DNA from: a virus
Virus record (IMG/VR): IMGVR_UViG_3300037418_002743
Span: 32,001 to 96,000 of that record
Strand: one strand, 5' to 3'
Length of the DNA stretch: 64,000 nt
Shown here: piece after piece, positions 5,994-35,361 of the stretch
Layout of the letters: each line of letters starts with the position of its first letter
How positions within the stretch are numbered: position 1 is the stretch's first letter
The notes under the pieces: model-generated
Databases searched by the model: none
What the model was told of the DNA's origin: nothing
What the model saw: only the letters and a program-made list of their open reading frames with translations
Translations under genes and position numbers: made by a program

Positions 5994-6425
5994 TCATGCG
6001 ATGCGGGTGGACTCCCGCTCCCAGGCGGCCGCGAAGGAGGCGGCCCGGGGGTCGTTGGGGCGTCGCTCGGCGTGGACCGCGATGACGCGGCGGACCCCGT
6101 CGGGGGTGTGCCCGAGGGTGCGGGCGAAGCGCGAGGGGGGGTAGCCGAGGGTGAGCCCGAAGTGCTCCCACTCCTGGAGGATGTGGACCGCGTCCATGCC
6201 GCCGCCGAGCTTCGCGGCGGGACCGTCCTCGGGGTGAGCCTTCTTCTGGCGCGTCTCCTGGGTGGCGCGCTGGCATTGCTTGCACTGGTTACTGCTGCCG
6301 GGGAAGTGCTTGTTCACGCAGCGTCGCGTTTGGGTGCGTGAGCGGTGCATCGGCTTGTGGCACTTCGGGCACGTCGTGAGCGTGGCCTCGATACACGGGG
6401 CAGGGGCCAATTTGGGCGCGGTCAT
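5994..6425 (-). CDS. Zn-finger plus HTH-like putative transcription regulator
   Basis: CPKC...CKQC, then PSRFARTLGHTPDGVRRVI HTH-like; first gene after the palindromic promoter at 6493. Confidence 0.6.
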   Translation of the reverse strand: MTAPKLAPAPCIEATLTTCPKCHKPMHRSRTQTRRCVNKHFPGSSNQCKQCQRATQETRQKKAHPEDGPAAKLGGGMDAVHILQEWEHFGLTLGYPPSRFARTLGHTPDGVRRVIAVHAERRPNDPRAASFAAAWERESTRIA

Positions 6426-6488: not shown

Positions 6489-6516
6489 ATGTTACCGCGA
6501 TGTGCGGCGACGTCAA
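6489..6516 (-). promoter_or_regulatory. Palindromic-spacer promoter copy (TTGACG-16-TAACAT)
   Basis: Operator-like taccgcgatgtgcggcg at 6493-6509. Confidence 0.7.
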
Positions 6517-6692
6517 CGTTCTGTTCGGTGCTATCGACACTATAGGTGGACGCTATGTAATCCAACCTTTACGGTGCGCGGTGTCATGAGAGCCGTATCT
6601 ATTGCGACGCAGCAACCATCACCACGTGTGAGTGACAAGTCGGAGAGGTGACTCCGGGTCACTCCCCCGGCTTTGCGTGCACCCCGTCCGGT

Positions 6693-6729
6693 CATACGGT
6701 TACCCTACCGTGTCGTGCGGTAGCGTCAA
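6693..6729 (-). promoter_or_regulatory. Palindromic-spacer promoter copy with an ATG 6 nt after the -10
   Basis: TTGACG-CTACCGCACGACACGG-TAGGGT-AACCGT-ATG(6695). Confidence 0.65.
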
Positions 6730-6755
6730 GTGATGATAATTCCGACTGATGCGGA

Positions 6756-6783: not shown

Positions 6784-7065
6784 GTGCCGCACCCGTACGA
6801 CGAGCGCGCCGCCGCCCAGCGGATCGCGGAGCGCGACTACCTCAACGAGGCCGCTCACCGGCTCCGCCGGCGGGCGATCGCCGACGGGTACGCAGGCATC
6901 CGCGGCCAGGACACCGCCCTTGCCTTCGCCGCGGCGATGGAGTCCTGCGCCCGCGGCTCCGACCCGCGAGGGGACCTCATGAGCGCAGCCCGCCGGATCC
7001 TCGAGGGACCCGACGGGCCGGGAGACGCACGCAGCGGAGGCGCCGCGCTCACGAAGGGCTGGTGA
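6784..7065 (+). CDS. Putative SOS-inducible leaderless hypothetical protein
   Basis: GTG at 6784 lies 6 nt after the -10 next to the SOS box; in frame with ORF 6730..7065. Confidence 0.6.
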   Translation: MPHPYDERAAAQRIAERDYLNEAAHRLRRRAIADGYAGIRGQDTALAFAAAMESCARGSDPRGDLMSAARRILEGPDGPGDARSGGAALTKGW

Positions 7066-7453
7066 GCCGGTCCGCCCGGAGCCCGGGCAACGCCGGACAC
7101 TCCGTTGAGGTGATCCGCAGCTCCGCCGCCTGCACCCACCACTCCCACGCCGCCCGGTCCGGGATGCAGTAGTCCGTCATGATGTCGCCCTCCCGGTCGA
7201 GGACGTCGAGCACGGCATAGTGGTCGCGGCACCTGGATGCGTACGGGCCCGTCGTGGCCGACGCGGTCGACCAGTTCGAGCACCGCACCCCGGCCGCGCG
7301 GGACGCATCAAGCAGTCTCCCCACTGCGTCCAGCCCGGTCGTCTCCAGAACGGCGCGGTAGGCGATTCCGTGGCGCCGCCCGTGCTCCTGGCAGCCGCGG
7401 AAAGCGCCGAAGGTGTAGGCCGCGCGGCCCTCCTCGTTCAGGTCGCGGCTCAT
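7049..7453 (-). CDS. Hypothetical phage protein
   Basis: MSRDLNEEG..., ATGA overlap with the hicA-like gene. Confidence 0.6.
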   Translation of the reverse strand: MSRDLNEEGRAAYTFGAFRGCQEHGRRHGIAYRAVLETTGLDAVGRLLDASRAAGVRCSNWSTASATTGPYASRCRDHYAVLDVLDREGDIMTDYCIPDRAAWEWWVQAAELRITSTECPALPGLRADRLTSPS

Positions 7454-7710
7454 GACGCCATCCTGCCGGGCTTCTTGCCGACCGGCGGCCAGACGAGGCC
7501 GGCGCGGCGGAGGTCCGCGATCAGGTTCGCGACGCCGCGGTGATCGGAGTTCGTGCACGGGCACACCGCGACGATCCGGCCGCGCGGGTCCCGGATCCGG
7601 GGGTGCCCGCCGCCCTTGCTCGCGTCGACGGAGAAGCCCTTGCTGACGGCCTCTTGCACTACCCGGCGGGCGTCCTTGTCGCGGATGAGGCGGAGTCCGT
7701 GTCTGCTCAT
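7450..7710 (-). CDS. hicA: HicA-like toxin/RNase domain protein
   Basis: DARRVVQEAVSKGFSV..SKGGGHPRIRDPRGRIV..PCTNSDHRGVANLIADLRRAG; HicA fold with the conserved GxH His. Confidence 0.7.
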   Translation of the reverse strand: MSRHGLRLIRDKDARRVVQEAVSKGFSVDASKGGGHPRIRDPRGRIVAVCPCTNSDHRGVANLIADLRRAGLVWPPVGKKPGRMAS

Positions 7711-8069
7711 CGGGCACCGCCGGCGGGGAGCGCGGGCTCCGCGCCGATGACGGAGCCGTCGACGACGGCCGGGTAGCCGTCGAGGCGGAGCCCCTCGACG
7801 AGGCGGGCGACGTCGTCCTCGGACCAGCAGACATGCTCGCGGGCGAACGCGAGGACGTCGGCCATCGTGCGGACCTCGTCGAGGTCGGCGGGGCCGCCGT
7901 ACTCCTCGAACGGGGAGGTGCAGGAGCAGCCGGTCGTCCAGCCGATGAAGTACCGGCCGGCGGCGTCGTCGGCGAAGATCGTGATCTGGTCGTACTCGTA
8001 GCCGCCGATGCGGTCGTGGTTCTTGTGGATCCGCAGGCCGTACTTCTCGGGGTTGAAGTAGAGGTTCAC
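7707..8069 (-). CDS. Conserved actinophage hypothetical protein
   Basis: YEYDQ...GCSCTSPFE motif; strong RBS GAGGAG. Confidence 0.7.
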   Translation of the reverse strand: MNLYFNPEKYGLRIHKNHDRIGGYEYDQITIFADDAAGRYFIGWTTGCSCTSPFEEYGGPADLDEVRTMADVLAFAREHVCWSEDDVARLVEGLRLDGYPAVVDGSVIGAEPALPAGGAR

Positions 8070-8087: not shown

Positions 8088-8109
8088 AGGGCCGCTGGCA
8101 GGCGGCTCT
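8088..8109 (-). promoter_or_regulatory. CUGCCA-loop leader hairpin
   Basis: AGAGCCGC-CTGCCA-GCGGCCCT, then TCCCTCCC and the RBS. Confidence 0.65.
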
Positions 8110-8178
8110 CTGTCTCTTGTCTACCCGGCGGCACCGACGGTTCCTCCGCCGACGCGCCGGGCCTTTCGTGGTATCTCC

Positions 8179-8206
8179 ACCGTACCGTATGACGCGGCAT
8201 CGTCAA
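8179..8206 (-). promoter_or_regulatory. Palindromic-spacer promoter copy
   Basis: TTGACG-ATGCCGCGTCATACGG-TACGGT. Confidence 0.65.
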
Positions 8207-8276
8207 CACTTATTAACAACGGTGCCGCCCCCGGCGGGTGCGGGGGCGGCGGGGAGCGGACGGTCCGGGCGCGGCC

Positions 8277-8468
8277 TCAGTGCCGCGCGAGTCGGGAGGC
8301 GAAGAGGTGGTGGTGCTTGACGGCGTGCACCGCGTGGCGGATGTGCTCGACGGTCTCGAAGTGCTCGGGGATCTCGACCAGCTCGAAGTGCAGGATCTCG
8401 ACGTGCAGGAGGTGGCCGAGGAGGAGGGTGGCCAGGAGGAGCAGGGCGGAGGCGATGCCGTTCGTCAT
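8277..8468 (-). CDS. Leaderless His-rich small membrane/secreted peptide
   Basis: MTNGIASALLLLATLLLG...; 11 His in 63 aa; promoter upstream and hairpin at about 8224-8250 downstream. Confidence 0.55.
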   Translation of the reverse strand: MTNGIASALLLLATLLLGHLLHVEILHFELVEIPEHFETVEHIRHAVHAVKHHHLFASRLARH

Positions 8469-8502
8469 GCCTTAAAGCTACCGCGCGGTGCGGTAGTTAC
8501 AA
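8469..8502 (-). promoter_or_regulatory. Palindromic-spacer leaderless promoter
   Basis: TTGTAA-CTACCGCACCGCGCGG-TAGCTT-TAAGGC-ATG. Confidence 0.75.
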
Positions 8503-8538
8503 GGGAAGGCGACGGCTGAGAACGAAGAAAAAGCCTGG

Positions 8539-8787
8539 TCACAGCCCCCTTGACGGGAGCGGCCCATGCTCGTCCGCGTGCCCCCGCGCCGCCTCCGCGT
8601 CAGCGAAGCCGAAGCAGAACGCCGCCTCGACGTCCGGGCCCCGACTCCCCCGCCGCCGGCGCGGTGACGGAGCCTCGACCATCAGCACCCACATCCAGCG
8701 GGAGCCGTCCGGCTTCACCCCGAGCCAGTCGCCGGACGGGAGGTCCCGCCGCCAGTACCCCGGCCGGACCTCCCGCCAGTCGGTCAC
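8539..8787 (-). CDS. Small Trp-rich hypothetical protein
   Basis: GTG at 8787 overlaps the upstream stop (VTDWREVRPGYW...). Confidence 0.5.
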   Translation of the reverse strand: MTDWREVRPGYWRRDLPSGDWLGVKPDGSRWMWVLMVEAPSPRRRRGSRGPDVEAAFCFGFADAEAARGHADEHGPLPSRGL

Positions 8788-9218
8788 GCGGGGCGGCCGT
8801 TGGCGTGCGACTCCCGCTCGAGCCGCTCCGCCGGCACGAGCTCCGCCTCCGAGTACGGGCGGCGCACAGCGGCGCGGCGGGCCTGCGCGGAGTGGTACTC
8901 GCGGAGGATCCGGGCCCGGTGCTCCCGGACCTCCGTCGGGAGCCAGTGCAGCTCGCAGGCGACGTTGAGCGGGATCCCCCGCGACTTCGCCCAGTTGGAG
9001 CATTCCGAAGGCCTGTGCGGCTCGTTGACGGAGCGGAGAGGGAGTTCCGGGTAGTGGTCACACTCGGGGCAGCACGGGGTGTGGTGCATCCCCGTGAGCC
9101 CCGAGAGGCATGCTGAGGGGAGCGACGCACACCCGGAGCAGGCCCGCAGGGTCGCGGCGGTCTCGGCGATGAGGATCGGGACGGCCGGCGCGGCGGGCGT
9201 CTCCTGGAGGACGGTCAT
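8784..9218 (-). CDS. Cys-rich hypothetical protein
   Basis: CSGC...CCPECDH...C; leader contains the CU box. Confidence 0.6.
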   Translation of the reverse strand: MTVLQETPAAPAVPILIAETAATLRACSGCASLPSACLSGLTGMHHTPCCPECDHYPELPLRSVNEPHRPSECSNWAKSRGIPLNVACELHWLPTEVREHRARILREYHSAQARRAAVRRPYSEAELVPAERLERESHANGRPA

Positions 9219-9300
9219 GGCAGTGGCCTTCTTCGGGAGGGAGTGAGGGGACGAAGAGGGCCCGGCGGCGGTTGGCAGACCGCGCCGGGCCCTTCGTGTG

Positions 9301-9507
9301 TCAGAGGCGGCGGGCGTTCATCCAGTCCGCGCCCCAGCGGGCGGAGCCCTCGGCGCAGAGTCGCAGCCACTGCTCGTTGTTGGTCGTGGCGACGGCGAGG
9401 GCGGCCTCGGAGCCGTCGGCGAAGGCGAGGTCCCGGGTCTCGGCGAGCCCGTCGGCCAGGGCTCCGGCCTCGGCGGCGGTGAGGTTCGCGGTCATCGTGT
9501 TCGTCAT
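9301..9507 (-). CDS. Leaderless small hypothetical protein (MTNTMT...)
   Basis: ATG 6 nt after the TATGGT -10 of the promoter copy at 9518-9534. Confidence 0.6.
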   Translation of the reverse strand: MTNTMTANLTAAEAGALADGLAETRDLAFADGSEAALAVATTNNEQWLRLCAEGSARWGADWMNARRL

Positions 9508-9547
9508 GTGTTCACCATACCGCGCGGTGCGGGAGCTGCAAGACCTT

Positions 9548-9904
9548 CTATCCGAGGATGTTCCGGCCGTCCGCATCCGCCTCGGCGAGGTAGCGCTGCA
9601 CGTCCTGGATCGCGTGCGCGGCGATGTCGAGGTCGAGGAGCCGACGCACCGGCTCCTTCTCCGCGTCGAGCGCGGCATCCGACACGGCCCGCACCGAGAC
9701 GCGCTCCATGCGGAGCAGGCGGGCCAGGGCGGCGTGTCCGCGCGTCGTCAGCTCCGCCTCGATGTCGACACGACGCCGGCGGGCGGACATCCGGCCCTCG
9801 GTGCGCAGGGAGTGAAGCTCGACGTCGTCGGCGGCCGCCTCCGCGGCGATCGCGGCCCGGTACTCGGCGACGGCGGCGGTGAGGGTGCGCACGGGTGCGG
9901 TCAC
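9548..9904 (-). CDS. Hypothetical helical protein
   Basis: RBS GAAGGAG; CUGCCA hairpin at 9934-9955. Confidence 0.65.
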   Translation of the reverse strand: MTAPVRTLTAAVAEYRAAIAAEAAADDVELHSLRTEGRMSARRRRVDIEAELTTRGHAALARLLRMERVSVRAVSDAALDAEKEPVRRLLDLDIAAHAIQDVQRYLAEADADGRNILG

Positions 9905-9992
9905 GGTGTTCTCCTTCGGGAGGGAAGACGGACGGCCGTGCTGGCAGGCGCGGCCCTCCGGGGTGAGCGTGAGCGGAATCGTGGGGAGTCGG

Positions 9993-10766
9993 CTATGACG
10001 CGGAGCGCACGTGAAGCTTCCCGTCCTCCCCGTGGACGAAGTGCCCGGACTCGCAGAGCTGGGCGATCACCGCGTCAATGCCGTCGGTGCGCTCCAGCAG
10101 GGTGGCGATCGCCGTCTTGCTCGTCCCGCCGTGCCACTCCCCCCGCTCGATCCGCTCCCTGATCTTCGCCACGGTCGCGGCGATGGCCCGCCGACGCTGC
10201 CCGCCGACGATCGCCGCGGCCTCCTCGAGCGACCGCGCCGGAGCGGGCCCGGGCTTCGTCTTGCGGTTGATGCGGTAGGTCTCGACCTGGCTGCGGAGCC
10301 AGTAGCCGTCGAGCACCGGGCGCGGGAAGCCGGTGTTGTCCCGGCCCGCCTTCCGGTCGGACTCCAGCTGGTAGACGCGCTGGCGGGTCACGCCCAGCTT
10401 CTCGGCGAACTCCGCGACGCTCACGACGTCCGGCATCGCGACGGCGTGGAGCCGCTGGGCCACTACCTCATCGGAGGTGAGCTCGACCTGATCCCAGCCG
10501 GTCACGCGGTAGCCGTGCCCGGCGAGGACGCCGACCAGGCAGTTCGCGGCGCGGGTGAGCCGACTGGGCAGCGCGGTGGGCGTGACCTCGTCGTCATCGT
10601 CAATGAGGACCTGGCCCTGCACGAGGTACGCGCCGTCCTGATCGTAGGAGCACATTCCGCCGATGAGCTGGGAGTCGGCAGCCCAGGCGCGGGACAGCGT
10701 CATGGCGGCGTCGGGGTGCATGGGGCGATCAAGGCGGACGCCGAGAGTCAGCGCGTGCGATGTCAT
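9993..10766 (-). CDS. AlpA/excisionase-like HTH protein with extra N-terminal domain (HicB-like antitoxin candidate)
   Basis: PDVVSVAEFAEKLGVTRQRVYQL...FPRPV...YWLRSQVETY; ATG at 10766. Confidence 0.65.
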   Translation of the reverse strand: MTSHALTLGVRLDRPMHPDAAMTLSRAWAADSQLIGGMCSYDQDGAYLVQGQVLIDDDDEVTPTALPSRLTRAANCLVGVLAGHGYRVTGWDQVELTSDEVVAQRLHAVAMPDVVSVAEFAEKLGVTRQRVYQLESDRKAGRDNTGFPRPVLDGYWLRSQVETYRINRKTKPGPAPARSLEEAAAIVGGQRRRAIAATVAKIRERIERGEWHGGTSKTAIATLLERTDGIDAVIAQLCESGHFVHGEDGKLHVRSAS

Positions 10767-10873
10767 GTCAGCATCATCCGGTGTCGCTTTCACATCGTCA
10801 AGCCGGGCTAGGTGCCCGGTTAGGCTGGCCGGGCGGCCGGGGGAGGGTCCCACTCCCCCGACCGCCCGTTCCC

Positions 10874-11131
10874 TCAGTTCATCCCCGGGTCGGGATCGCT
10901 CCCGAGCACCGGCCCCAGCCGGAACCACCTCGGCCCTTCCGCCTCCGCGAAGGAGGCGATGGCTGCCGCAAGCAGCAGCTCAAGCGCCTCGTCCTCGAGG
11001 ACGATCCGGGGGAGGTGCCATGCCGTGCCGGGTACCGCCTTGCTCTGGATCACCAGGTCCTCCTCGTTGAGGTGGAAGGTGTATCCGCGAGCGCGGAGCC
11101 CGAGGACGAACTGATCGGCCAGCTCAGTCAC
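10874..11131 (-). CDS. Hypothetical protein
   Basis: RBS AGAGGAG before GTG at 11131. Confidence 0.5.
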   Translation of the reverse strand: MTELADQFVLGLRARGYTFHLNEEDLVIQSKAVPGTAWHLPRIVLEDEALELLLAAAIASFAEAEGPRWFRLGPVLGSDPDPGMN

Positions 11132-11352
11132 TGAGCCGCTCCTCTCTGTTGAGTTATCGCTTACAAGAACTAACGTAAGTCTCGCGGGAGGGTCGCGCAA
11201 GACTTATCTACCGCGCTCTGCGGTAGCGTCCGCACCGTTGGATTGACGGGTAATTAGGACCATGACCTGCGTCAACCAGAGAGAGTCACCGCGTGAGGCC
11301 GGGCGGGTGATCCCGCACCTCCGTCGAGGGGACCGCCCGTCGCCGTCACCGC

Positions 11353-11634
11353 TCACCGGGCACGTTTGATCCCTGCCCGGTCCGCTACCGCCTCCCAGGA
11401 GTCCGCGTGCCCCTCCGCCTGCAGCGCCTGAGCGCGCCGGTAGAGCGCGACCTCGCGGTCCGCGGTCCTGTACTGCCGGGAGGCCGGATCCGCCCCGTCG
11501 CGGCGCGCTGTGGCGTCCCGGAGCCACTCCGCGATCCGCTCCGCCGGGTAGACGTGCGCGATGTTGAGCGCCTGCGCCTCCGCGGTGCGGGCCGCCCGCT
11601 CCGCCATGCGCTCCAGCGCGGTCTTCGCGGGCAT
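11353..11634 (-). CDS. Hypothetical protein
   Basis: MPAKTALERM..., coupled to the upstream gene. Confidence 0.55.
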   Translation of the reverse strand: MPAKTALERMAERAARTAEAQALNIAHVYPAERIAEWLRDATARRDGADPASRQYRTADREVALYRRAQALQAEGHADSWEAVADRAGIKRAR

Positions 11635-11831
11635 CACGCGCCCCAGATCGCGACGGCGGAGGCCTCGACGAGGACGGTGTGCCGCCCGTCGGTCACGTAC
11701 ACGCAGCCCTCGTGGGCGTGCGAGTGCACCTCGACGGGCGTGCCGACCATGATCACGCCGTACTTCTCGCCGGGCCGGGCGATCATGATGTCCCGGGTGG
11801 TCTCCCCCGCGAGCATCACCGGCGCGCTCAT
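11634..11831 (-). CDS. Small hypothetical protein (SH3-like beta composition)
   Basis: 65-aa ORF overlapping both neighbours. Confidence 0.55.
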   Translation of the reverse strand: MSAPVMLAGETTRDIMIARPGEKYGVIMVGTPVEVHSHAHEGCVYVTDGRHTVLVEASAVAIWGA

Positions 11832-12058
11832 CGCGCACCCGCCGCCGGGTAGAGCCGCGCCATCGTCGTGTGCAGCTCTCCGCCGTGGTCGCGGAGGCTC
11901 AGGCGCGCGAGCTCCTGGACGCGGCCGGTGTGCGGGGACCGGATCGAGAAGACCGCCTCGATGACGACGGGGGCGGGCGCGCCGGAGGGCATGGTCCAGC
12001 CGAGCGGGAGCAGCGCCTCCCAGCGGGGGGCGTGCGGGTCGAGGTCGGTGAGCTGCAT
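11828..12058 (-). CDS. Small hypothetical protein
   Basis: RBS GAAGGAG; CUGCCA hairpin at 12078-12103. Confidence 0.6.
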   Translation of the reverse strand: MQLTDLDPHAPRWEALLPLGWTMPSGAPAPVVIEAVFSIRSPHTGRVQELARLSLRDHGGELHTTMARLYPAAGAR

Positions 12059-12125
12059 GACGGTCTCCTTCGGGGAGGGCCGGGCGCTGGCAGGCGCCCG
12101 GCCGGCGGGAGGGATGAGGGGCGTG

Positions 12126-12476
12126 TCAGGCGGGGTCGACGCCGTAGACGACGGCGCCCGGGTACTCGTCCTCGAACGCCTCTCGGGCGGCGAGGGAGTC
12201 GACCGCGGTCACGGTGGCGATGTCGCGGATGGTGCGGCCGCGGGAGGTCTCGGTGCGGTACCAGACGCGGTAGGGCCGGGGGCCGTTCGCGGCGGCGGCT
12301 CGCTCGGCGGCGGTGAGTTCGTCGGCGATGTGGCCGATCGCGAGGGCGCCGACGGTGCCGGAGGCGACGAGGGCGGCGGCGGTGGCGCGGGCGGCGGCGG
12401 TGGCGCGGAGGTCCTCGCGGAGCTGGGCGGCGGTGCGGGAGGGAAGGGCGGAGGTGGCAGCCTCGGGGTTCGTCAT
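12126..12476 (-). CDS. Leaderless hypothetical protein (MTNPEA...)
   Basis: Promoter copy at 12487-12503. Confidence 0.65.
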   Translation of the reverse strand: MTNPEAATSALPSRTAAQLREDLRATAAARATAAALVASGTVGALAIGHIADELTAAERAAAANGPRPYRVWYRTETSRGRTIRDIATVTAVDSLAAREAFEDEYPGAVVYGVDPA

Positions 12477-12816
12477 GCGTTAACCATACCGCATGACGCG
12501 GTGAGCACAAGGGTGGCGACACCATTGCCGTTCCCCTCCGCACGTCCGGCCCCCATCTCGGTCCGCTCGGAGGGGTGCCATGCCTCCGCCCTTAGGCTTC
12601 CTAGTACGGCGATCAGGAGGGCTCGGGACGGCGTCAGGACGGCCGTCCGCTACTGGTGCACACGCGATGAAGGAGGACGTCTCTCATGACCCACAGACGG
12701 GCCCGGGCCCCGGCCCGGACAGTGAGATCGGGACCGCCCTGGTCCGGCGATCCCGATCTCGGCAAGACGCTCATCGGCACGATCAACCAGGCAGTTTCTC
12801 GAACGGAGGTCTCGCG

Positions 12817-13080
12817 ATGGCGAGAGTACGCAAGGAAGTCAAGCGGGTCGTGGCGCGGCTCCGGCCCACGACGGAGGCGGGCCCGATCGGGTGGCCGGAC
12901 GTGGCCCTGGGCGTGATCGCCCTGCTCGGGCCGCTGCTCGCGACCAGCACGACGGACCCGGCGGCGACGGAGCGGCTCGTGCGGATCCTCCGCTGGGTGT
13001 GCGCGCTCGTCTTCCTGGGCGCGGTCGCCGTGCTGGCGTACCGGCTCCCCTTCGGCGAGCTGGTCACGCTCCTGACCTGA
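12817..13080 (+). CDS. Small two-TM membrane protein
   Basis: RBS GGAGG, two hydrophobic segments, hairpin at 13098-13134. Confidence 0.55.
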   Translation: MARVRKEVKRVVARLRPTTEAGPIGWPDVALGVIALLGPLLATSTTDPAATERLVRILRWVCALVFLGAVAVLAYRLPFGELVTLLT

Positions 13081-13175
13081 CCCGCCCCGCTCCGGCGCGA
13101 AGGCCCGTCCCCTCTCCCGTGGGGCGGGCCTTCGTCGTGGGGCCGGCGGCTCCCCGAGGAACTTCGACCCGATCT

Positions 13176-13295
13176 TCAACGACGTCGGGCGGCGGCGCGG
13201 AGGTCCCGCAGCTCCGCAAGCTCGGCGTCGGTGAGCCCGCGCCGGCGCATCAGGGCCTCGAGGTCGTCGAGGCGGTCGAGGTCGTCGAGGTCCAT
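13176..13295 (-). CDS. 39-aa peptide (MDLDDLDRLDDLEAL...)
   Basis: Strong leader CCCTCCCGAAGGAGACCGTCATG; below the ORF-track size cutoff. Confidence 0.5.
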   Translation of the reverse strand: MDLDDLDRLDDLEALMRRRGLTDAELAELRDLRAAARRR

Positions 13296-13325
13296 GACGG
13301 TCTCCTTCGGGAGGGGCCGGAGCGG

Positions 13326-13547
13326 CTAGAAGCCGCGGTAGGCGTCCTTGACCGCCTCGAATCGATCCCGGAACTCGTTCATGACGCGGAGGTCGCGGCG
13401 GAGCAGGCGGCCGCGCTCCGGGGTCACGACGCCGTTGGGGATCTCGCGGAGCAGGGCGCAGAGGCGCTTGTGCTCGGCCCAGAGGTCGGTGATGGAGAGG
13501 GTGGAGGGGCGGCCGGTGGTCTTGCGGGGCTTCGTGGTGTTCGTCAT
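13326..13547 (-). CDS. Leaderless small hypothetical protein (MTNTTK...)
   Basis: Promoter copy at 13558-13574. Confidence 0.65.
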   Translation of the reverse strand: MTNTTKPRKTTGRPSTLSITDLWAEHKRLCALLREIPNGVVTPERGRLLRRDLRVMNEFRDRFEAVKDAYRGF

Positions 13548-13679
13548 GCGTTAACAATACCGCGCTACACGGTAGTTACAAGGGCTGTAGAGCGAGACCG
13601 GTAAAGAAATAACGCGGCCCGGTCCCCCACCAGCCGAGGACCGGGCCGCTCTACCGGCGGGACGCCGCCGGGGCTCACA

Positions 13680-14072
13680 TCACGACAGCTGGAAGACCAG
13701 CTGCGCGGAGTCGATCTCGGAGGAGAAGGAGCGGAGCAGGTGCTTCGCCGCGACCCGGACCGCGGAGCCAGCGGCGTTGGCGAAGGCGGACGACGTCGTC
13801 GCCTCGGAGTCGAGGGCCTGACCGATCCGGCTCGCGAGCGAGTCGCGGCGGCGCTCGGCCGGCGCCTTGAGTGTCGCGGCGAGGATCGCGACCTTCGTCT
13901 CGGCGATCACCGCGTCGCGGAGGTAGTGCTCCGCGGCGTAGACGAGGGACGGGCAGTCGGCGATCATCGCCCGCTGCTTGGTGACGGTCTGCTCGGCGGA
14001 GGCGAGCTGGACCTTGAGCGCGTGCTCGAGCTCGACGTCGGTCAGGGCGGCGGAGGCGGGCTTGGTGCTCAT
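13680..14072 (-). CDS. Hypothetical helical protein
   Basis: Promoter copy at 14138-14154, CUGCCA hairpin at 14100-14119, RBS AAGGAG. Confidence 0.7.
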   Translation of the reverse strand: MSTKPASAALTDVELEHALKVQLASAEQTVTKQRAMIADCPSLVYAAEHYLRDAVIAETKVAILAATLKAPAERRRDSLASRIGQALDSEATTSSAFANAAGSAVRVAAKHLLRSFSSEIDSAQLVFQLS

Positions 14073-14165
14073 CGAGGTCTCCTTGGTTCGGGAGGGAAGG
14101 GGCCGCTGGCAGGCGGTCCGTCTTACGTTGTTGAGCTTACCGCGGTGCGCGGTGAGTACAAGGGC

Positions 14166-14390
14166 TTATGCCCAGGTGGTTCGGGCCGGGATCTCGACGC
14201 CGTACCGGCGGCCGAGGGCGTGCACGGCGGCCTCGTCGGCGACCCGCTTCGTCCAGAGGTGCACGCCGCCGGTGGCGTTGTAGGCGTCGACGATGAAGCG
14301 CTCGTAGTAGGGGTTCCAAGTCACGTAGGCGAAGGGGAGGGCCGGGGTGCCGTCGTCCTCGATGTCCGGGGTGATGGTGTTCGTCGTCAT
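14166..14390 (-). CDS. Leaderless small hypothetical protein (MTTNTI...)
   Basis: Promoter copy at 14401-14417. Confidence 0.65.
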   Translation of the reverse strand: MTTNTITPDIEDDGTPALPFAYVTWNPYYERFIVDAYNATGGVHLWTKRVADEAAVHALGRRYGVEIPARTTWA

Positions 14391-14420
14391 GACTTCACCA
14401 TACCGCAGCATGCGGGAGGA

Positions 14421-14570
14421 TCAAGCCTTTCGGCGGGAGGTGACCCAGCGGTCGACCTCGACGCCGCGCTCGTACTCGCGGACCTCGAAGTAGACGCGCG
14501 GGTCACCGGCCGGGCCGGCGAGCGGCTCCGGGTCCCGGACGGTGCCGGTGAAGTCGGCGGGGATGTTCAT
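14421..14570 (-). CDS. 49-aa peptide (MNIPADF...)
   Basis: RBS GGAG; its TGA stop forms part of the next -35 box. Confidence 0.5.
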   Translation of the reverse strand: MNIPADFTGTVRDPEPLAGPAGDPRVYFEVREYERGVEVDRWVTSRRKA

Positions 14571-14582
14571 GACGGGCTCCGA

Positions 14583-14885
14583 TCAGGCGGCGTGGAAGGG
14601 GATCTCGGCGCGGGTGCGGCCCCACGCCCCGCCTTGCGCGGCGGTGTGGCGGCGGAGCGCGTCGAGGTTGGCGAAGGCGGCGATGGGGCGGGAGCCGATG
14701 AGCACTTGGACGGTCGCGCCGCCGGGAGTGCCGTGGAGCGGGATCTCGGTGCGGGTGTAGCCGAGGAGCGCGGAGCCGCCGCGGGCGGTCATCCAGCGGC
14801 GCATCGCGGTGATGTCGGCGAAGGCGCGGATGGGGCGGCCGGCGTCGAGGAGGAGGGTCGCGGTGGGGGCTTCAGTGTTCGTCAT
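14583..14885 (-). CDS. Leaderless protein with an internal duplication
   Basis: Promoter copy at 14896-14912; two RPIxAFA...TRxEIP units. Confidence 0.65.
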   Translation of the reverse strand: MTNTEAPTATLLLDAGRPIRAFADITAMRRWMTARGGSALLGYTRTEIPLHGTPGGATVQVLIGSRPIAAFANLDALRRHTAAQGGAWGRTRAEIPFHAA

Positions 14886-14959
14886 GTGATTACCATACCG
14901 CGTACCGCGGGAGGTTCAAGCCCTTCGGCCGGGCGGGTTCGCCCGGCCGGGCCGGAGCC

Positions 14960-15262
14960 CTAGTGCCCGAGGCACTTCGCGCAGTCGATCTCGTACCGAG
15001 AGGACACGGCGGAGGCGGCGGAGCGGGCGTTGCGGTAGCGCTCGGCGCCGCAGTAGACGCCCACCGTCTTGCCGACCGACTCCCCGTAGGCGTTGAGGTA
15101 GCGGGTGACCGTGGCGCGGTGCACGGTCTTGGCCTTGCCGACGACCGCGCGGCCGTCGGTGTTCTCCTCGACGGTGACGACCTGCTTGTGCGCCGGCTTG
15201 CCGGCGTCGGCGGCGATCTCGGCGGCGGTGGCGGGGCGGGTGGTGACCGTGGCGTTCGTCAT
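14960..15262 (-). CDS. Leaderless small protein with Zn-binding-like C-terminus
   Basis: Promoter copy at 15273-15289; H...YCG...CAKC. Confidence 0.65.
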   Translation of the reverse strand: MTNATVTTRPATAAEIAADAGKPAHKQVVTVEENTDGRAVVGKAKTVHRATVTRYLNAYGESVGKTVGVYCGAERYRNARSAASAVSSRYEIDCAKCLGH

Positions 15263-15292
15263 GTCTTAAAGATACCGCGTCACGCGGGAGTT

Positions 15293-15478
15293 TCAAGCCG
15301 CTGAGGCAAGCCAGGTCCAGAACGCTCGCACCGGCCGGGCGATCGCGTCGCAGACGGCGGCGAGGAAGTGCACGACGTCCGCGCTGAACGCCACGTACGG
15401 GGCGGTGGCCACCGCCGCGACGAGCGCGAGGGCGGCGAGGACCAGGAGGGCGACGGCGGCGCGCTCGGTGGCGTCCAT
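15293..15478 (-). CDS. Small membrane protein
   Basis: RBS GAAGGAG; hydrophobic N-terminal half. Confidence 0.55.
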   Translation of the reverse strand: MDATERAAVALLVLAALALVAAVATAPYVAFSADVVHFLAAVCDAIARPVRAFWTWLASAA

Positions 15479-15504
15479 GACAGGTCTCCTTCGGATGGGG
15501 TCGT

Positions 15505-15735
15505 TCACCGGATGCCGGCGACGTACAGCAGGCCCTCGATGAGCCGGAGCACGAAGACGCCGGCGTCGATGATCGTGTGGCCGATCAGGGTCCACACGGT
15601 CTCGATCATCCCGACGTAGGCGGCCGGGCCGACGATCAGGACGAGGAGCAGGACCGGGAGCAGGCCGAGGCCGGCGGGGGCGACGGCGTCGATGATCGTG
15701 CGGGCGGCGGAGGCGGTGCGTGCGGTGTTCGTCAT
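15505..15735 (-). CDS. Leaderless small membrane protein (MTNTAR...)
   Basis: Promoter copy at 15747-15763; two hydrophobic segments. Confidence 0.6.
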   Translation of the reverse strand: MTNTARTASAARTIIDAVAPAGLGLLPVLLLVLIVGPAAYVGMIETVWTLIGHTIIDAGVFVLRLIEGLLYVAGIR

Positions 15736-15819
15736 GCCGTTGAGCTTGCCGCGCGGTGCGGTGTGGTTCAAGAGGTAGTTTCCTCTTGAGTCCGCCGCAT
15801 AGAGCGGTATGGTTGTTGC

Positions 15820-16062
15820 ATGACGACGACGGAGCTTGCCGCGGACCACCTCTCCGACGAGGACTTCGCCCTCGCCGAGCGGATCCTCGACCGCCTCTGC
15901 GCCAAGGGCGACCGGAGGGCGTACAGCCCCTCCGAGATCGGCCGGATCGCGAAGGCCGAGACCTCCGCAGTGCGCCGGGTCCTCCCCGTGCTCGTCGAGG
16001 ACGGGAACCTCGCCGTGGCCGGGAACGGCGCCTGGCGCCGCTACACCTTCGTGATGGGCTGA
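15820..16062 (+). CDS. Leaderless winged-helix DNA-binding protein
   Basis: YSPSEIGRIAKAETSAVRRVLPVLVEDGNLAVAGNGAWRRYTF; plus-strand promoter copy TTGAGT-16-TATGGT-6-ATG. Confidence 0.65.
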   Translation: MTTTELAADHLSDEDFALAERILDRLCAKGDRRAYSPSEIGRIAKAETSAVRRVLPVLVEDGNLAVAGNGAWRRYTFVMG

Positions 16063-16741: not shown

Positions 16742-17133
16742 GCCGCCCCGTTCTCCCGCCCGGCGGCACGCTTCCGGGCCTGCGTCGACCGGCCGCCGTG
16801 CTTCCCCGACTCCCGGGCGTTCGCCTTCCGGGCGCCCTCGGTGCGCTCCTCGTGCAGCAGCGCCCGGGCGTCGACGATCACCTCGCCGAGCAGGCGGTGC
16901 CGGGTCTCCCGGTCCATCAGCGGTGACCGGCGGAGGGCGTCGCCGAACCGGCGGGCGCGGGCGTCCGCGTCGTCCCGGCGGGCCGTCATGAGCACCTGGG
17001 CGAGGCGGAGCGCGCACTCGGTGTGGTGCTGCCAGCAGTCGAGGGAGTGCTCCGCCCGCCAGGCCTTCTTCGACCCGAGCGGGCGGGCGACGACGAGGCC
17101 GAGCTCGGTGGTGGTCGGGGCGGGGTCGGTCAC
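16738..17133 (-). CDS. Hypothetical protein
   Basis: GTG at 17133 with RBS GGAGG. Confidence 0.55.
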   Translation of the reverse strand: MTDPAPTTTELGLVVARPLGSKKAWRAEHSLDCWQHHTECALRLAQVLMTARRDDADARARRFGDALRRSPLMDRETRHRLLGEVIVDARALLHEERTEGARKANARESGKHGGRSTQARKRAAGRENGAA

Positions 17134-21359: not shown

Positions 21360-22037
21360 TCAGCCCGCCCGCAGGGGGCAATCGCACTCGCCGTCGGTGC
21401 GGGCGTCGGGGTTGCAGCGCCCGGTGCACGGCACGTCGACGAGGCGGGCGAGGAGGCGGAGGCACTCGGCGCCGGCGCGGACGTCGCCCCCGGCGGTGTG
21501 GTCGCCGATCTCGACGTCGAGGCGCTCGCAGATCTCCCGGAACGACAGCGGCGGGTGGTCGATCGGGAGGCGGAAGGCGCCGCGGGCGATCGAGCCGAGG
21601 TTCTCCATCCGGTAGTGCCACGGCCGCACCTCGAGGCAGAGGTCCGGGTCCAGGTGCCGGGCGAAGGCCTTCGCGATGAAGGCGGCGTCGAAGGCGGGGT
21701 TCACGGCGACCAGGGCGCGGCGCGGGACCGGCGGGGCGTCCTCGTCCGGGACGTGATGGATCGGGCCGCCGAACTGCTCCCAGAGCCGCTGCAGCTCCGG
21801 GCCGTTGTCCATCACGTAGGGCTGCCAGAGGCCGCGCTCGACGTAGCGGTTGACCTGCAGGGCCTCGGGCTCCGCGGCCGCGAGGATCTCCCGCGGGTTG
21901 TGCTTCGGGACGAAGCAGCCCGTCTCCCCGGTGGTGATGTTCTCCCAGCCGATCTCGACGGCGTCGTGCCGCTCCGGGTCGAGCCCGTTGGTCTCGGTGT
22001 CGACGAAGATCAGCTCCGTCGGCTCGTAGTCGCTCAT
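21360..22037 (-). CDS. DEDDh 3'-5' exonuclease (DnaQ-like)
   Basis: FVDTETNGL, NPAFDAAFI and HTAGGDV motifs. Confidence 0.85.
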   Translation of the reverse strand: MSDYEPTELIFVDTETNGLDPERHDAVEIGWENITTGETGCFVPKHNPREILAAAEPEALQVNRYVERGLWQPYVMDNGPELQRLWEQFGGPIHHVPDEDAPPVPRRALVAVNPAFDAAFIAKAFARHLDPDLCLEVRPWHYRMENLGSIARGAFRLPIDHPPLSFREICERLDVEIGDHTAGGDVRAGAECLRLLARLVDVPCTGRCNPDARTDGECDCPLRAG

Positions 22038-23509
22038 CCTTCGAAGCTCTCCTCATCACGCGGGTCCGGCTCCTCGCAGAGCCCGCACTCGCCGTTCATC
22101 AGGACCGGAACGGTGGTGATCCGTCCGTCGTCGCTCTTGGTCGGGTGCCCGGCCTCGTGCCAGGCGGCGGTGCCGGGAGTCGGCAGGTCGCCGGCCGGCG
22201 CCTCCGCGGCCGGGGTGTCGGTCGCGCCGAGCACCTCGGCGACGAACTCCTGCAGGCGGCCGCCGTCCTTCGCCGCGGTGAGCTGGCGGATCACCTCGAG
22301 CCCCTCCGCGCGGGACAGCTCCGACGTCGACCCGACGGGGACCGAGCGCCCGGCGAGGCGGGACGCGATGAGCTTCCGGCCGGCGTCGTCGCCGACCCCG
22401 CCGGCGCCGATGAGCCGCCCGATCTGCGTCGTCATCGCCCGCGAGATCGCCTCGTCCGCCGCCGGGGCGGCCGCGGTCGAGGCGGGCGGCTCCGGCGGAG
22501 GCGGCACGTCGTCCTCCCGCGGGGCCGGCACGGTCGCGGCCGCGTCGACGTCGCGGAGGGCGTTGGTGTCGTCGTCGGTCTCGACGTCGATCACCGCGCC
22601 CTGGATCGCGCCGCGGCCCGGCTCCGGCTCCGGGTGCCGCGCGGTCAGCATCTCGTCGTAGTCGTCCTGCCCAGCGGGCTTGTAGGACAGGCGGACCGCG
22701 CCGTCGACCTCGGTCGCCGCGGTGAGCAGCCGGTCCGTCGACTTCGGAGCCCACCGCTTCGCGCGGAGGAAGCACGTCTTGATCGCCATCTGATCGAAGC
22801 CCGTGCCGCCGTCGGGGCCGTCCATGTCGAACCAGGGGCCGGCACCCTGGGCGTTGCCGTCGTTGTCCCGGACGACCTCGCCCTTGAAGCGCTTGGTCCC
22901 CATCGCGTGGTGATCGCGCCAGGCGATCGCCTCCTCGCGGGTCATCACCCAGAACAGCGGGTCCGCGTCGTGGAAGAACAGGACCGCGTAGTAGGCGACG
23001 ACCGGGCCGCGCTCCTTCCCGATCCCGGCCGGACGGTGCACGAGCTTCTCGTCGAGTCCGAACTCGACGTGGAACTCGTCGTTGGCGTGCACGGCCCGGC
23101 CGACGATCTTCTTGACCGCGCCGGAGCGGTGGACCAGCTCGACGTAGCCCTGGTAGCCGATGACGATCTGCGCCTCGAGGCGGTTCCCCTTCTTCCAGTT
23201 CTTGAAGGGGATCAACCAGCCCTGGCCCATGACGCCCGGGCGGAGCCCGAGCTGGGCGAAGGTCATCAGCCCGCCGAGGACGGTCTCCGGCACGCACTCC
23301 GCGAGGTCCGGGTTCTGCCGGAGCAGCGTCATGGCGTCGCGGATGAGCTGCTGCGCCTCGAAGCCGCGCGGCATCGCCATCGCGAACTGCTCATGCATGT
23401 CCTCGATCTGCTTGCGGAGCGTCGGCCGCTCCCGCTGCTCGACCTCACCTCCGCCGCGGCGCGCGACCTGCGCGCGGGCGTTGACACGCTCCGCGAGTCC
23501 GTTGCCCAT
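22034..23509 (-). CDS. recT: RecT-family single-strand annealing protein with C-terminal extension
   Basis: LGLRPG..GQGWLIPF...AQIVIGYQGYVEL..RSG...FDQMAIKT. Confidence 0.9.
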   Translation of the reverse strand: MGNGLAERVNARAQVARRGGGEVEQRERPTLRKQIEDMHEQFAMAMPRGFEAQQLIRDAMTLLRQNPDLAECVPETVLGGLMTFAQLGLRPGVMGQGWLIPFKNWKKGNRLEAQIVIGYQGYVELVHRSGAVKKIVGRAVHANDEFHVEFGLDEKLVHRPAGIGKERGPVVAYYAVLFFHDADPLFWVMTREEAIAWRDHHAMGTKRFKGEVVRDNDGNAQGAGPWFDMDGPDGGTGFDQMAIKTCFLRAKRWAPKSTDRLLTAATEVDGAVRLSYKPAGQDDYDEMLTARHPEPEPGRGAIQGAVIDVETDDDTNALRDVDAAATVPAPREDDVPPPPEPPASTAAAPAADEAISRAMTTQIGRLIGAGGVGDDAGRKLIASRLAGRSVPVGSTSELSRAEGLEVIRQLTAAKDGGRLQEFVAEVLGATDTPAAEAPAGDLPTPGTAAWHEAGHPTKSDDGRITTVPVLMNGECGLCEEPDPRDEESFEG

Positions 23510-24603
23510 CACTTGCTCCCAGGGGTGTCGTCGATCATCGAGTCGAGGGTCTTGCGGGGGCGGAGCACCCGGCCGCGGTGCGCGGCGTACTGCTCCGGGT
23601 GCTTGGACTTGACCGCGTCGAGGTCGAGGACCTCCGTCGTCTTGCTGCACGCGGCCGCGAGGTCCGGGTACGCGGCGGTGAAGGCGGACTTCGACATCTG
23701 CCCGGTCTGGCCGAAGGTGGCGAGGATGTTCGCCTTCCCGGCCTTGGTGTCGTCGATCGGCGCGGTGAGGTCCCGGACGACGAGCTCGGCGTCGCCGATG
23801 AGGTGCCGGAGCTTGGAGTCCCAGCCGGTGACCTCGGCCTCGGCCATGCGGAGCCGCTCCTTCGCCTCCCGGAGGTGGCGGAAGGCGTCGAGGATGTCCG
23901 CGGTGATCTCGATCGCCTTGCCGGCGTGCGCGGTCGCGTACATCTCGCGGATGACCTCGTTGGTGGCCTCCGTGTCGTCGAGCGGCGGCATCTCGTCCGC
24001 GACGACGTAGGACTCCCACCAGTCCCGCTCGAACGCGACGAGGTCGGCGATCAGCGCCTCGTCCCGCTCGATGCGGCGCCAGACGAGGGTCTGCCCGCCG
24101 ATGAGCCCGGCGATCCAGGCGTGCGGGAGCCCGGTCACCGCCATCCCGTGCTGCACCTGCAGCTCGGCGTGGTCCGGCGCCTGCTCGTTCCCCCACTCGT
24201 CCCGCCGCCACAGCGAGCAGGTCTTCCCCTCGTACAGCCCTCCGTCGTTGGTGACCCCGTCGGGGCTGTAGAGCATGAAGGGGTTCACGAGGGACCGCTG
24301 CATCCCCGCCGCCGCGACGGTGATCCCGGTGCGCCGGGACCACTCGTCCCGGACGACCGGCTCGAGGAGGGTGCCCCAGAGCGCGGGCTCGTTCGGCGGC
24401 TCGTCGGAGTCCTCGTCGACCCGGTCCGTCTTGTCCAGCCACACCCGGACCGGGGAGGAGAACTTGTTGAGCCCGAGGACGGTCGAGGCGTCGGATCCGC
24501 CGATGCCCTCCCGCCGGGCCTCCAGCCACTCGTCCCGGTCCGGGTCCGGCGGGAGCACCTGCTCGGAGCCCGGGAGGGTCATCACGGCGGCCGGCGCGCT
24601 CAT
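23509..24603 (-). CDS. YqaJ/lambda-exonuclease family recombinase nuclease
   Basis: EWLEARREGIGGSDA...WGTLLEP...SPDG...EGKT...QVQHGMAVTG. Confidence 0.9.
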   Translation of the reverse strand: MSAPAAVMTLPGSEQVLPPDPDRDEWLEARREGIGGSDASTVLGLNKFSSPVRVWLDKTDRVDEDSDEPPNEPALWGTLLEPVVRDEWSRRTGITVAAAGMQRSLVNPFMLYSPDGVTNDGGLYEGKTCSLWRRDEWGNEQAPDHAELQVQHGMAVTGLPHAWIAGLIGGQTLVWRRIERDEALIADLVAFERDWWESYVVADEMPPLDDTEATNEVIREMYATAHAGKAIEITADILDAFRHLREAKERLRMAEAEVTGWDSKLRHLIGDAELVVRDLTAPIDDTKAGKANILATFGQTGQMSKSAFTAAYPDLAAACSKTTEVLDLDAVKSKHPEQYAAHRGRVLRPRKTLDSMIDDTPGSK

Positions 24604-24751
24604 GCTCGGGCCCCGCACATCGGCTCGGCGTCCTCGTCGAGGTGCTCCGTGCAGTGGTGGCACGGGGCGGAGACGAAGCACGTGCAGCCGCCGCAGTCGG
24701 CGAACTCGTCGCGGTCGTCCAGGTCGGTCCAGTCGTCCTCGGGCACGTCGA

Positions 24752-25108: not shown

Positions 25109-25291
25109 CGTCTTCTTCTCTTAGGGAGGGAAGGGACATTTGACGAAGCCCTGACGTGGACCAACGGGTTGGCAGACCCGCCGCGCGGGGCTTCGTCGCT
25201 TTCTACGATCACTCTACCGCTGTTCGCGGTAGCGTCAACACCTTTCTTTCTCGCCGCTAGCCGGCGGCAGGGTGTTTCTCCTGGTCAGACC

Positions 25292-25789: not shown

Positions 25790-25949
25790 GCGGCGGCCCG
25801 CCTCAGGTGCCGGGGGCGGCTCCGGTGCGGCATGCGGAGCACCAGCGCCCGGCCGCGGGCCGCCCGGTGCGCCCCGACCTGCATCCGCAGGCCGATCACG
25901 ACCCCGACGGCGATCCCGACGACGAGGGCCAGGACGACGAGCTCCCCGG

Positions 25950-35331: not shown

Positions 35332-35361
35332 AGTCACATCACCCCGACCGAGGAGGACGAC

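Follow-up and report, generated by a model that had tools for sequence, protein, structure and literature searches.

The 64,000-nucleotide stretch analysed here, hereafter the window, comprises bases 32,001-96,000 of the 105,275-bp virus record IMGVR_UViG_3300037418_002743. It carries an array of small, mutually unrelated genes headed by copies of one promoter block, in which a palindrome is built into the promoter spacer and, in 12 copies, the start codon stands directly behind the -10 element. Judging from the sequence, it is probable that this hyperplastic early/accessory region is a repressor-controlled regulon of at least 22 short leaderless and leadered units. The reading rests on the predicted 5' ends of the leaderless genes, which are unstructured and G-poor, on the use of ACG as their second codon where the genome prefers ACC, and on a comparable array in the phage-plasmid pAmyja1, in which the conserved stretch at +1 is non-coding. 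Each unit would start with a host-type (HrdB/sigma-70-like) promoter including the palindrome; a dimeric phage repressor on the palindrome would occlude RNA polymerase, so that all units would switch together; and the leaderless mRNAs would be read directly by ribosomes. The blocks, which abut both gene ends, would often border gene replacement between relatives, as in the promoter-early stem-loops (PeSLs) that serve as mobile regulatory cassettes of T4-type phages (PMC2839356, PMC4122927).

Architecture and distribution of the promoter-operator units

Twelve promoter copies had been proposed to carry an ATG 6-7 nt behind the -10 without a Shine-Dalgarno (SD) sequence, and all 12, when read from the sequence, do so behind a TANNNT -10. 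The ATGs lie on the minus strand at 6695, 8468, 9507, 12476, 13547, 14390, 14885, 15262, 15735 and 44766, and on the plus strand at 15820 and 37268, with a gap of 6 nt in ten copies and 7 nt in two (15735 and 44766). The general layout is a -35 starting with TTG, a 16-bp spacer, the TANNNT -10 and then the ATG. The original prediction took the conserved block to run from the -35 through codon 3; a repeat of about 45 nt does head unrelated small genes, but the 17-bp palindrome within it, a predicted operator, had not been named, and the unit is wider than described. Behind TTGnnn come 1 nt and the palindrome TACCGC-N5-GCGGTA, with its final TA doubling as the opening bases of the -10. Defined in this way, 22 promoter-operator units are found at 6.4-44.8 kb of the window, 12 of them leaderless and 10 leadered, the latter with operators starting at 6493, 8183, 11209, 14138, 25215, 29386, 32641, 33843, 35255 and 35311.

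With up to two mismatches, the palindrome occurs 29 times in the genome against around 9 times in shuffled sequence; 22 of the 29 sites lie at 6.4-44.8 kb of the window, and all 22 stand in one register behind a TTG-type -35. A weight matrix derived from the copies scores true sites at 38-55 bits and shuffled genomes at no more than 13 bits, and in a scan of the whole 105-kb genome its matches are restricted to 6.7-44.8 kb of the window. Most leadered copies have a stronger -35, TTGAC(G/A). At least the leadered units 8183, 14138 and 32641 carry a hairpin with a CUGCCA loop in the 5' untranslated region (UTR); 3' of the hairpin, 8183 and 14138 also have a CCCUCCC box and an SD.

The array proteins are mutually unrelated, as originally thought: they have no paralogues in the genome and, weak hits aside, belong to no Pfam or PHROG family. 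Both stop codons described as part of the next -35 (14421-14423 and 15293-15295) are indeed the TGA inside the hexamers TTGATC and TTGAAA. The description of the genes as self-contained mini-gene cassettes fits in part, in that single-gene units exist, but several units are operons of 2-4 genes with SD-led later genes, and one unit inside the leaderless array at 13.3-15.8 kb (14125-14164) is leadered. The region from 6.4 to 16.1 kb holds 13 promoter-operator units, with 1-4 genes per unit, and the operator-free promoter of a helix-turn-helix (HTH) gene; it is an array of mini-operons, not purely of one-gene cassettes. Terminators are few between the head-to-tail units, with one strong terminator closing the 13680-14072 unit. 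The units and associated features, in window coordinates, are as follows.

15783-15828, plus strand: divergent leaderless block, operator 15793-15809, ATG 15820; gene 15820-16062 (80 aa, MTTT, PHROG 7658, possible small DNA-binding protein, low-confidence fold)
15727-15773, minus strand: leaderless block, operator 15747-15763, weak -10 CAAGCT, 7 nt to ATG 15735; genes 15505-15735 (76 aa, membrane-like, MTN) and SD-led 15293-15478 (61 aa)
15254-15299, minus strand: leaderless block, operator 15273-15289, ATG 15262, with the TGA of the upstream gene (15293-15295) within the -35; gene 14960-15262 (100 aa, MTN, C-terminal Cys pairs)
14877-14922, minus strand: leaderless block, operator 14896-14912, ATG 14885; genes 14583-14885 (100 aa, MTN, internal repeat) and SD-led 14421-14570 (49 aa)
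14382-14427, minus strand: leaderless block, operator 14401-14417, ATG 14390, MTTN, with the upstream stop (14421-14423) within the -35
14166-14390, minus strand: ORFan cassette, 74 aa, unique to the phage
14125-14164, minus strand: leadered unit, operator 14138-14154, CUGCCA-loop hairpin, CCCUCCC box and SD in the 5' UTR; drives 13680-14072 (130 aa)
13614-13649, minus strand: strong intrinsic terminator-like hairpin, 14 pairs and T-rich tail; closes the 13680-14072 unit
13539-13584, minus strand: leaderless block, operator 13558-13574, ATG 13547, near-identical to the 29373-29412 block; genes 13326-13547 (73 aa, MTN) and SD-led 13176-13295 (39 aa)
12468-12513, minus strand: leaderless block, operator 12487-12503, ATG 12476; genes 12126-12476 (116 aa, MTN), then 11828-12058, 11634-11831 and 11353-11637
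11209-11225, minus strand: leadered unit operator; drives 10874-11131
9993-10801, minus strand: HTH protein gene, 257 aa, operator-free promoter TTGACG-17-GATGAT, leaderless ATG 10766
9499-9544, minus strand: leaderless block, operator 9518-9534, ATG 9507; genes 9301-9507 (68 aa, MTN), then SD-led 8784-9218 and 8539-8787
8460-8505, minus strand: leaderless block, operator 8479-8495, ATG 8468; drives 8277-8468 (63 aa, membrane-like, MTN)
8170-8209, minus strand: leadered unit, operator 8183-8199; drives 7707-8069 (DUF7574), 7450-7710 and 7049-7453
6687-6732, minus strand: leaderless-type block, operator 6706-6722, ATG 6695, MTG; open reading frame (ORF) 6540-6695 with weak coding signal
6489-6516, minus strand: leadered unit, operator 6493-6509; heads a long operon starting at 5994-6425
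29373-29412, minus strand: leaderless-type block with ATC for ATG, operator 29386; leader of ~52 nt to 28443-29324
37231-37276, plus strand: leaderless block, operator 37241-37257, ATG 37268, MSN; drives 37268-37570 (100 aa)
44758-44804, minus strand: leaderless block, operator 44778-44794, 7 nt to ATG 44766, MTN; drives 44446-44766 (106 aa)
25202-35340: five further leadered units, operators 25215, 32641, 33843 and 35255 (minus strand) and 35311 (plus strand)
8088-8109, 9925-9955, 12075-12100, 14095-14120, 18266, 26723 and 32610, minus-strand RNA: CUGCCA-loop gene heads

The last of these form a second recurrent gene head, seen in 5' UTRs and between operon genes, which consists of a variable-stem hairpin with the CUGCCA loop, the CCCUCCC box, GGAG and the start. 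It has no Rfam match, the word CTGGCAG occurs 25 times against 8 expected, and the CCCUCCC box could pair with the SD. As a separate observation, the 14583-14885 product is an internal tandem duplication of ~49 residues, the repeats at 14629-14702 and 14776-14849 being 70% identical.

Predicted leaderless starts and the conserved start word

An SD-like word (GGAG, GAGG or AGGA at -20 to -4) precedes none of the 12 leaderless starts, compared with 71 of 141 other gene calls. The start codon is AUG in all 12, C-1/A+1 is kept in 11, and the 5' ends are A/C-rich and G-poor. Their first 40 nt fold weakly, at a mean of -3.9 kcal/mol compared with -11.4 kcal/mol at other coding-sequence starts (p = 5e-7). 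This agrees with published work in which leaderless translation needed an accessible 5' AUG, the determinants being the identity of the start codon, a leader length of zero and the accessibility of the 5' end (PMC8459731). Identical starts are picked by the JGI gene caller, and homologues of the 14960-15262 product begin within a few residues of its start. From the -10/ATG geometry, the lack of an SD and the unstructured 5' ends we infer that the 12 mRNAs are leaderless, with the A of the ATG at the predicted transcription start.

The shared start itself is real, although eight copies rather than the seven originally counted begin ATGACGAAC (MTN); the other starts are MTTN (14390), MTTT (15820) and MSN (37268), as had been described, with MTG (6695) in addition. 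The reverse complement, GTTCGTCAT, is found 10 times against 0.31 expected, a number reached in none of 100 shuffles, and eight of the ten occurrences sit on promoter copies, the remaining two (47748 and 47828) having no promoter. Where the second codon is Thr it is ACG in 10 of 11 cases, while the genome favours ACC (ACC:ACG 1298:784) and other starts have ACC 15 times and ACG 4 times. Asn makes up 1.9% of residues, yet it is codon 3 in 8 of the 12 genes. Homologues of the 14960-15262 product on other contigs start MTN, MTTN, MTK, MTTT, MS or MA, a variety which argues that the protein does not need MTN, and they retain ATGAC-A-like starts. Taken with the non-coding +1 stretch of pAmyja1, the ACG bias, the Asn excess at codon 3 and the homologue starts point to a nucleotide-level, cis-acting cause and mark ATGACGAAC as a probable cis element rather than a signal in the proteins.

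On this view ATGACGAAC would be the portion of the control element that is transcribed and translated first, kept by cis constraint and by the shared ancestry of the blocks rather than by any need of the proteins. Promoter arrays of this type seem to conserve the bases transcribed first; in this phage the leader would have been removed, which turns those bases into codons 1-3. An accessible 5' end does not by itself call for the exact ATGACGAAC word, and for this reason a further reader or simple common descent must add to its conservation.

The palindrome as a predicted operator, and candidate repressors

The palindrome core CCG...CGG is invariant in 22 of 22 copies. Every change elsewhere in the palindrome is one-sided and breaks a pair, with no compensatory change in the 22 copies. 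Since half-site sequence is kept and the changes are one-sided and uncompensated, a protein operator is predicted rather than a hairpin; as far as its sequence goes, the pattern fits a sequence-specific dimeric DNA-binding protein and not an RNA or DNA hairpin. The conserved half-sites overlap the promoter core, filling the spacer and giving the first two -10 bases, and a protein bound there would repress because its site covers both.

The HTH gene at 9993-10766 is a candidate repressor, its operator-free promoter and leaderless ATG inviting a likeness to lambda cI expressed from PRM. The divergent 80-aa gene 15820-16062 is a second candidate, and a third HTH candidate in the genome lies at 43581-44393. 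Sequence searches of the PDB with two candidate regulators gave nothing meaningful. The plus-strand gene pair at 42753-44393 consists of an unassigned protein followed by a regulator with HTH_31 and DUF5753 domains, and it adjoins the 44766 leaderless unit and ParA.

The phage, its setting and its relatives

The record has a CheckV completeness estimate of 92%, is classed as linear in IMG/VR and has a GC content of ~72%. Large terminase, portal, major head protein and tail sheath were identified with PHROG and Pfam. RecT (22034-23512, minus strand) and the YqaJ exonuclease (23509-24618, minus strand) are both confirmed by Pfam, which also finds an FtsK/TraB-like ATPase, DUF932 and DUF2303, and ParA (46080-46940) is encoded together with the HTH_31/DUF5753 regulator. 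Because of the terminase, portal, head, sheath, RecT, YqaJ, FtsK/TraB-like and ParA hits, the virus is, by gene content, a phage with a contractile tail and plasmid-like genes whose host is a high-GC actinobacterium; it is probably temperate. A tyrosine recombinase is encoded outside the window, at genome 14687-15394 (Phage_integrase, E = 1e-31), and no serine recombinase was found in the genome. The sequencing runs that hold the phage DNA are soil and rhizosphere metagenomes.

Neither near nor protein-level searches of phage and plasmid collections gave a close relative, and no related loci were found with the HTH protein, RecT, DUF2303 or the 130-aa array protein as query. Relatives found in IMG/VR through the terminase share the structural genes alone and have no repeated palindrome and no leaderless promoter array. 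The exact promoter pattern has no match in viral contigs, and in genome and metagenome contigs it gave single, evidently chance matches without a -35. Rfam and tRNA scans of the window were empty. Elsewhere in the window, 48635-51769 encodes a 1044-aa protein made of Gly/Ala/Ser/Thr-rich repeats with a period of 57-63 nt, and at 54612-61592 modules of ~171 nt are repeated in neighbouring large genes; these repeat-built proteins are probably tail fibre or baseplate components.

Natural variants of the array

Logan contigs from four independent soil and rhizosphere runs were compared with 4-20 kb of the window. A 38.5-kb contig from run X3 is 97-99% identical and mosaic, and together with run X2 it gives five differences.

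Difference A, 11210-11352 (143 nt): replaced by a 20-nt operator-like palindrome, left edge exactly at operator 11209
Difference B, ~12390-13318: reduced to ~240 nt
Difference C, 14146-14383, the body of ORFan 14166-14390: replaced by ~204 unalignable nt in a ~98% relative, with edges at the centre of operator 14138-14154 and at the ATGACGA of the 14390 start
Difference D, 16820-17046: same-length divergent patch inside a gene
Difference E, 7063 joined to 7450 in run X2: removes gene 7049-7453, no promoter block at either end

The product of 14166-14390 is a singleton among 5.8 billion clusters and is present on this phage contig alone; its neighbours are also found on a 104,644-bp JGI contig. 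That JGI contig also encodes a protein, P0001, in which a homologue of the 39-aa ORF 13176-13295 is fused to 12126-12476 from residue 15. P0001 starts MTNT; the window ORF starts MDLDDL behind an SD, and a more distant homologue, P0002, stays unfused with MTN. The segment missing from the P0001 relative, 12434-13190, contains one block, 14 codons and a convergent plus-strand gene ending at 13080, and the ends of the deletion lie in GC-rich Ala/Arg codons, ~42 nt inside the gene. The relative has thus lost the 12474-12513 block and the convergent gene by deletion, and it seems to have an extra leaderless head on the small ORF. At 12357-12407, an 18-nt tandem duplication adds RATAAA to the 12126-12476 product relative to both homologues, and the GC-rich repeats around it draw many unrelated metagenome contigs.

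By these alignments the array is a hot spot of change, and at some units near-identical relatives have a gene swapped or given a new head. The expectation that gain and loss breakpoints map to the promoter block holds for two of the five differences, at both ends of C and one end of A, but the other three have no breakpoint in a block: B alters block content with its junctions elsewhere, and D and E are unrelated to blocks. Selection for intact genes would likewise put junctions at blocks, since gene ends and blocks coincide in a packed array. None of the 15 joints shown, out of 181, runs from block to block, and most of those shown have 21-nt sides in GC-rich repeats and are noise-like.

Descent of the blocks and the homology-handle idea

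Across the blocks, high information is confined to CTTG, CT-CCGC, GCGGTA, T-7, A-5, C-1 and ATGACGAAC; variation is found in the middle of the palindrome, in the 3' half of the -35 hexamer and at -9, -3 and -2. Such conservation at functional positions is, as a sequence pattern, the signature of selection on a control element. At the 21 low-information columns, the spread of pairwise similarity exceeds that of 500 out of 500 column shuffles. The blocks at 13558 and 29386, 16 kb apart, have a rare CCGT half-site, the centre and upstream bases in common; of the 21 low-information positions, block 29373-29412 agrees with 13545-13584 in 15, the highest value for any pair, and it has the look of a copy whose start codon was lost. 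Because these distant blocks match even at non-functional positions, the blocks must be copied: they are paralogous, placed at new sites and then diverging under functional constraint.

The original prediction went further and took the block from -35 to codon 3 to be a homology handle, used by the phage's own YqaJ/RecT system to add, delete and shuffle small genes in an integrase-free array. The last part does not hold for the phage as a whole, as a tyrosine recombinase is encoded, outside the window and ~23 kb away at genome 14.7-15.4 kb. As for the handle, YqaJ and RecT are encoded, blocks are copied and the array varies, but the blocks make poor handles and no event could be tied to RecT. 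The 12 leaderless blocks have a mean identity of 58% over -45 to +9 (range 33-78%), and among the 231 pairs of the 22 blocks the longest exact shared run is 8 nt at the median and 23 nt at most, a length that one pair reaches. The minimal efficient pairing segment is 23-27 bp for Red-beta and 31-34 bp for RecA (PMC3945230). With shared runs so short and identity so low against these minima, block-to-block exchange within one genome should be rare, while co-infecting relatives need no special handle, since their orthologous flanks are ~98% identical anyway. Two site-specific arrangements were also considered and rejected. An integron-like array does not suit units that each have their own promoter, a recombinase ~23 kb away, the lack of a serine recombinase and a 6-5-6 palindrome unlike attC; the palindrome as a tyrosine-recombinase core site is set aside because of its unfit 6-5-6 geometry, the cassettes' own promoters and the distant recombinase.

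Weighing the readings

Three other explanations compete with the regulon. The homology handle seems doubtful to us. The ORFan swap at 14146-14383, lying exactly between ATGACGA and the next operator centre and involving a singleton protein with shared neighbours, is what it would predict, as are the new MTNT head of P0001 on the homologue of the 39-aa ORF, the 143-nt/20-nt swap starting at operator 11209 and the copying of blocks between distant sites; RecT-type recombinases accept diverged DNA and short homology (PMC3945230), and the PeSLs offer a precedent (PMC2839356). These points are met by the 58% mean identity and 8-nt median run, with one of 231 pairs at the Red-beta minimum (PMC3945230), by a conservation of ~45 bp limited to functional positions, as opposed to ~100 bp in PeSLs, by the lack of a block breakpoint in the fusion deletion, the X2 deletion 7064-7449 and the patch 16820-17046, and by the lack of block-to-block joints among those shown; every gene border being a block, selection for intact genes predicts the same breakpoints. 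We regard it as a tentative possibility that the block is nevertheless a true exchange module, a leaderless, operator-bearing PeSL counterpart of actinophages, in which recombination inside the block, aided by RecT/YqaJ or by co-infecting relatives, would swap or re-head ORFan cassettes. Cassettes would in that case always arrive with a promoter, repressor control and a working start, codons 1-3 being the price of portability.

It is unlikely that the palindrome is instead an attenuating or terminating stem-loop against upstream read-through, as for PeSLs, which would make the blocks promoter-terminator composites. PeSL stem-loops occupy the equivalent place (PMC2839356), other terminators are few among the tightly packed head-to-tail units, and a terminator scan flags two copies with T-rich tails (15287-15275 and similar). 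However, the stem is short, at 6-7 pairs, a T-run is missing from most copies, half-site sequence rather than pairing is kept through one-sided, pair-breaking changes with none compensated in 22 copies, and a separate strong terminator is present where needed (13614-13649). Very improbable is a protein-level role for the shared MTN(T) start, in processing, stability or targeting. MTN is common to eight unrelated proteins, several of which go on with T or A, and Thr after Met favours Met removal; this idea is at odds with conservation at the nucleotide level, with ACG instead of the preferred ACC, with homologues that start MTK, MTTT, MS or MA, with proteins spanning membrane-like to soluble, and with the non-coding nature of the conserved +1 stretch in pAmyja1. 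The regulon itself faces several points that weigh against it: no phage protein could be linked to the palindrome, the 80-aa candidate folding at a pLDDT of 55 (single-sequence); blocks 15273 and 37241 also score as weak terminator-like hairpins with T-rich tails; the strictness of ATGACGAAC exceeds what accessibility requires, and a sequence-specific reader, protein or RNA, may be involved; and among the sequencing runs listed there were no RNA runs with phage DNA.

A repressor-controlled regulon of this kind would offer a compact, testable model for the connection of dozens of orphan genes to a single switch in a temperate actinophage, with the palindrome in the promoter and no leader RNA. 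If the reading is true, the 45-nt unit is a ready-made repressible leaderless expression part for high-GC hosts, ATGACGAAC shows what a leaderless 5' end needs beyond the AUG, and the natural variants are a test case for repeated promoters guiding phage gene exchange outside the T4 group.

Comparison with known systems

Leaderless genes are known in Actinobacteria and phages, lambda cI from PRM being an example (PMC4633059, PMC3898074, PMC8459731, PMC10491246), and they likewise have the -10 located 6-7 nt before the AUG, no SD and an accessible 5' end. What differs here is that a fixed module with conserved codons 2-3 is repeated over 12 unrelated genes, and no description of leaderless promoter arrays in actinophages was found in the literature searched. 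The SAS/ESAS elements of Cluster K mycobacteriophages are start-associated repeats with an SD core, 3-7 bp upstream of the start (PMC3203893). They resemble the present blocks in being tied to the (mostly ATG) starts of many unrelated non-structural genes, in being conserved across gene families and in sometimes having a 17-bp inverted repeat upstream. The SAS, however, contains the SD core, whereas here the repeat is a promoter, has no SD and runs into the coding sequence.

In phiC31, conserved inverted repeats are found at the early promoters. The array resembles these repeats and, more loosely, the stoperators of Cluster A mycobacteriophages in having ~20-30 copies of one short repressor site, here a predicted one, across the early/non-structural half, an arrangement suggesting that many units are silenced by a single protein. 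Cluster A stoperators are asymmetric 13-mers, bound by a monomer, which stop elongation in transcribed regions (PMC6550527, PMC9283540); the predicted site described here is a symmetric 17-mer in the promoter spacer and -10.

The nearest annotated relative, though a distant one, is pAmyja1 (NZ_CP008954.1), a phage-plasmid of Amycolatopsis japonica whose terminase is 44% identical. Its array has ~17 copies at 58-72.5 kb on the minus strand, each with an upstream box, TTGACA-N17-TAGTGT, GTCAGCAACGCAA and an SD ahead of small genes, and conservation reaches ~13 nt past the predicted transcription start into a non-coding stretch. The promoter sequence is a different one, its spacer contains no palindrome, and the genes follow an SD and leaders of ~30 nt. 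Being part of the phage-plasmid of a cultured strain, the pAmyja1 array is open to bench testing.

The likeness to the mobile promoter cassettes of T4-type phages, already suggested in the original prediction, is apt, both in layout and in ORFan turnover. In each case, a host-type early promoter, accompanied by a palindrome within or close to its spacer, recurs many times ahead of ORFans in a myovirus hyperplastic region, and close relatives differ by the gain, loss or replacement of ORFans beside the units. PeSL stem-loops lie mostly between the -35 and -10 or over the -10 (PMC2839356), and the palindrome described here is likewise in the spacer, with half-site sequence rather than pairing kept and no T-run in most copies. 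The PeSL palindrome is the G/C stem of a terminator, while here it has conserved operator-like half-sites; a PeSL has an SD and a start codon at its 3' end, while here there is no SD, the transcript would open with the start codon, and the repeat takes in three codons; and PeSL conservation extends over ~100 bp (PMC2839356), compared with ~45 bp and no AT-rich upstream part here. The host also differs from those of the T4-type PeSLs in being a high-GC actinobacterium. With these differences, the array is best placed as a variant alongside the promoter cassettes of T4-type phages rather than as a separate kind of system.

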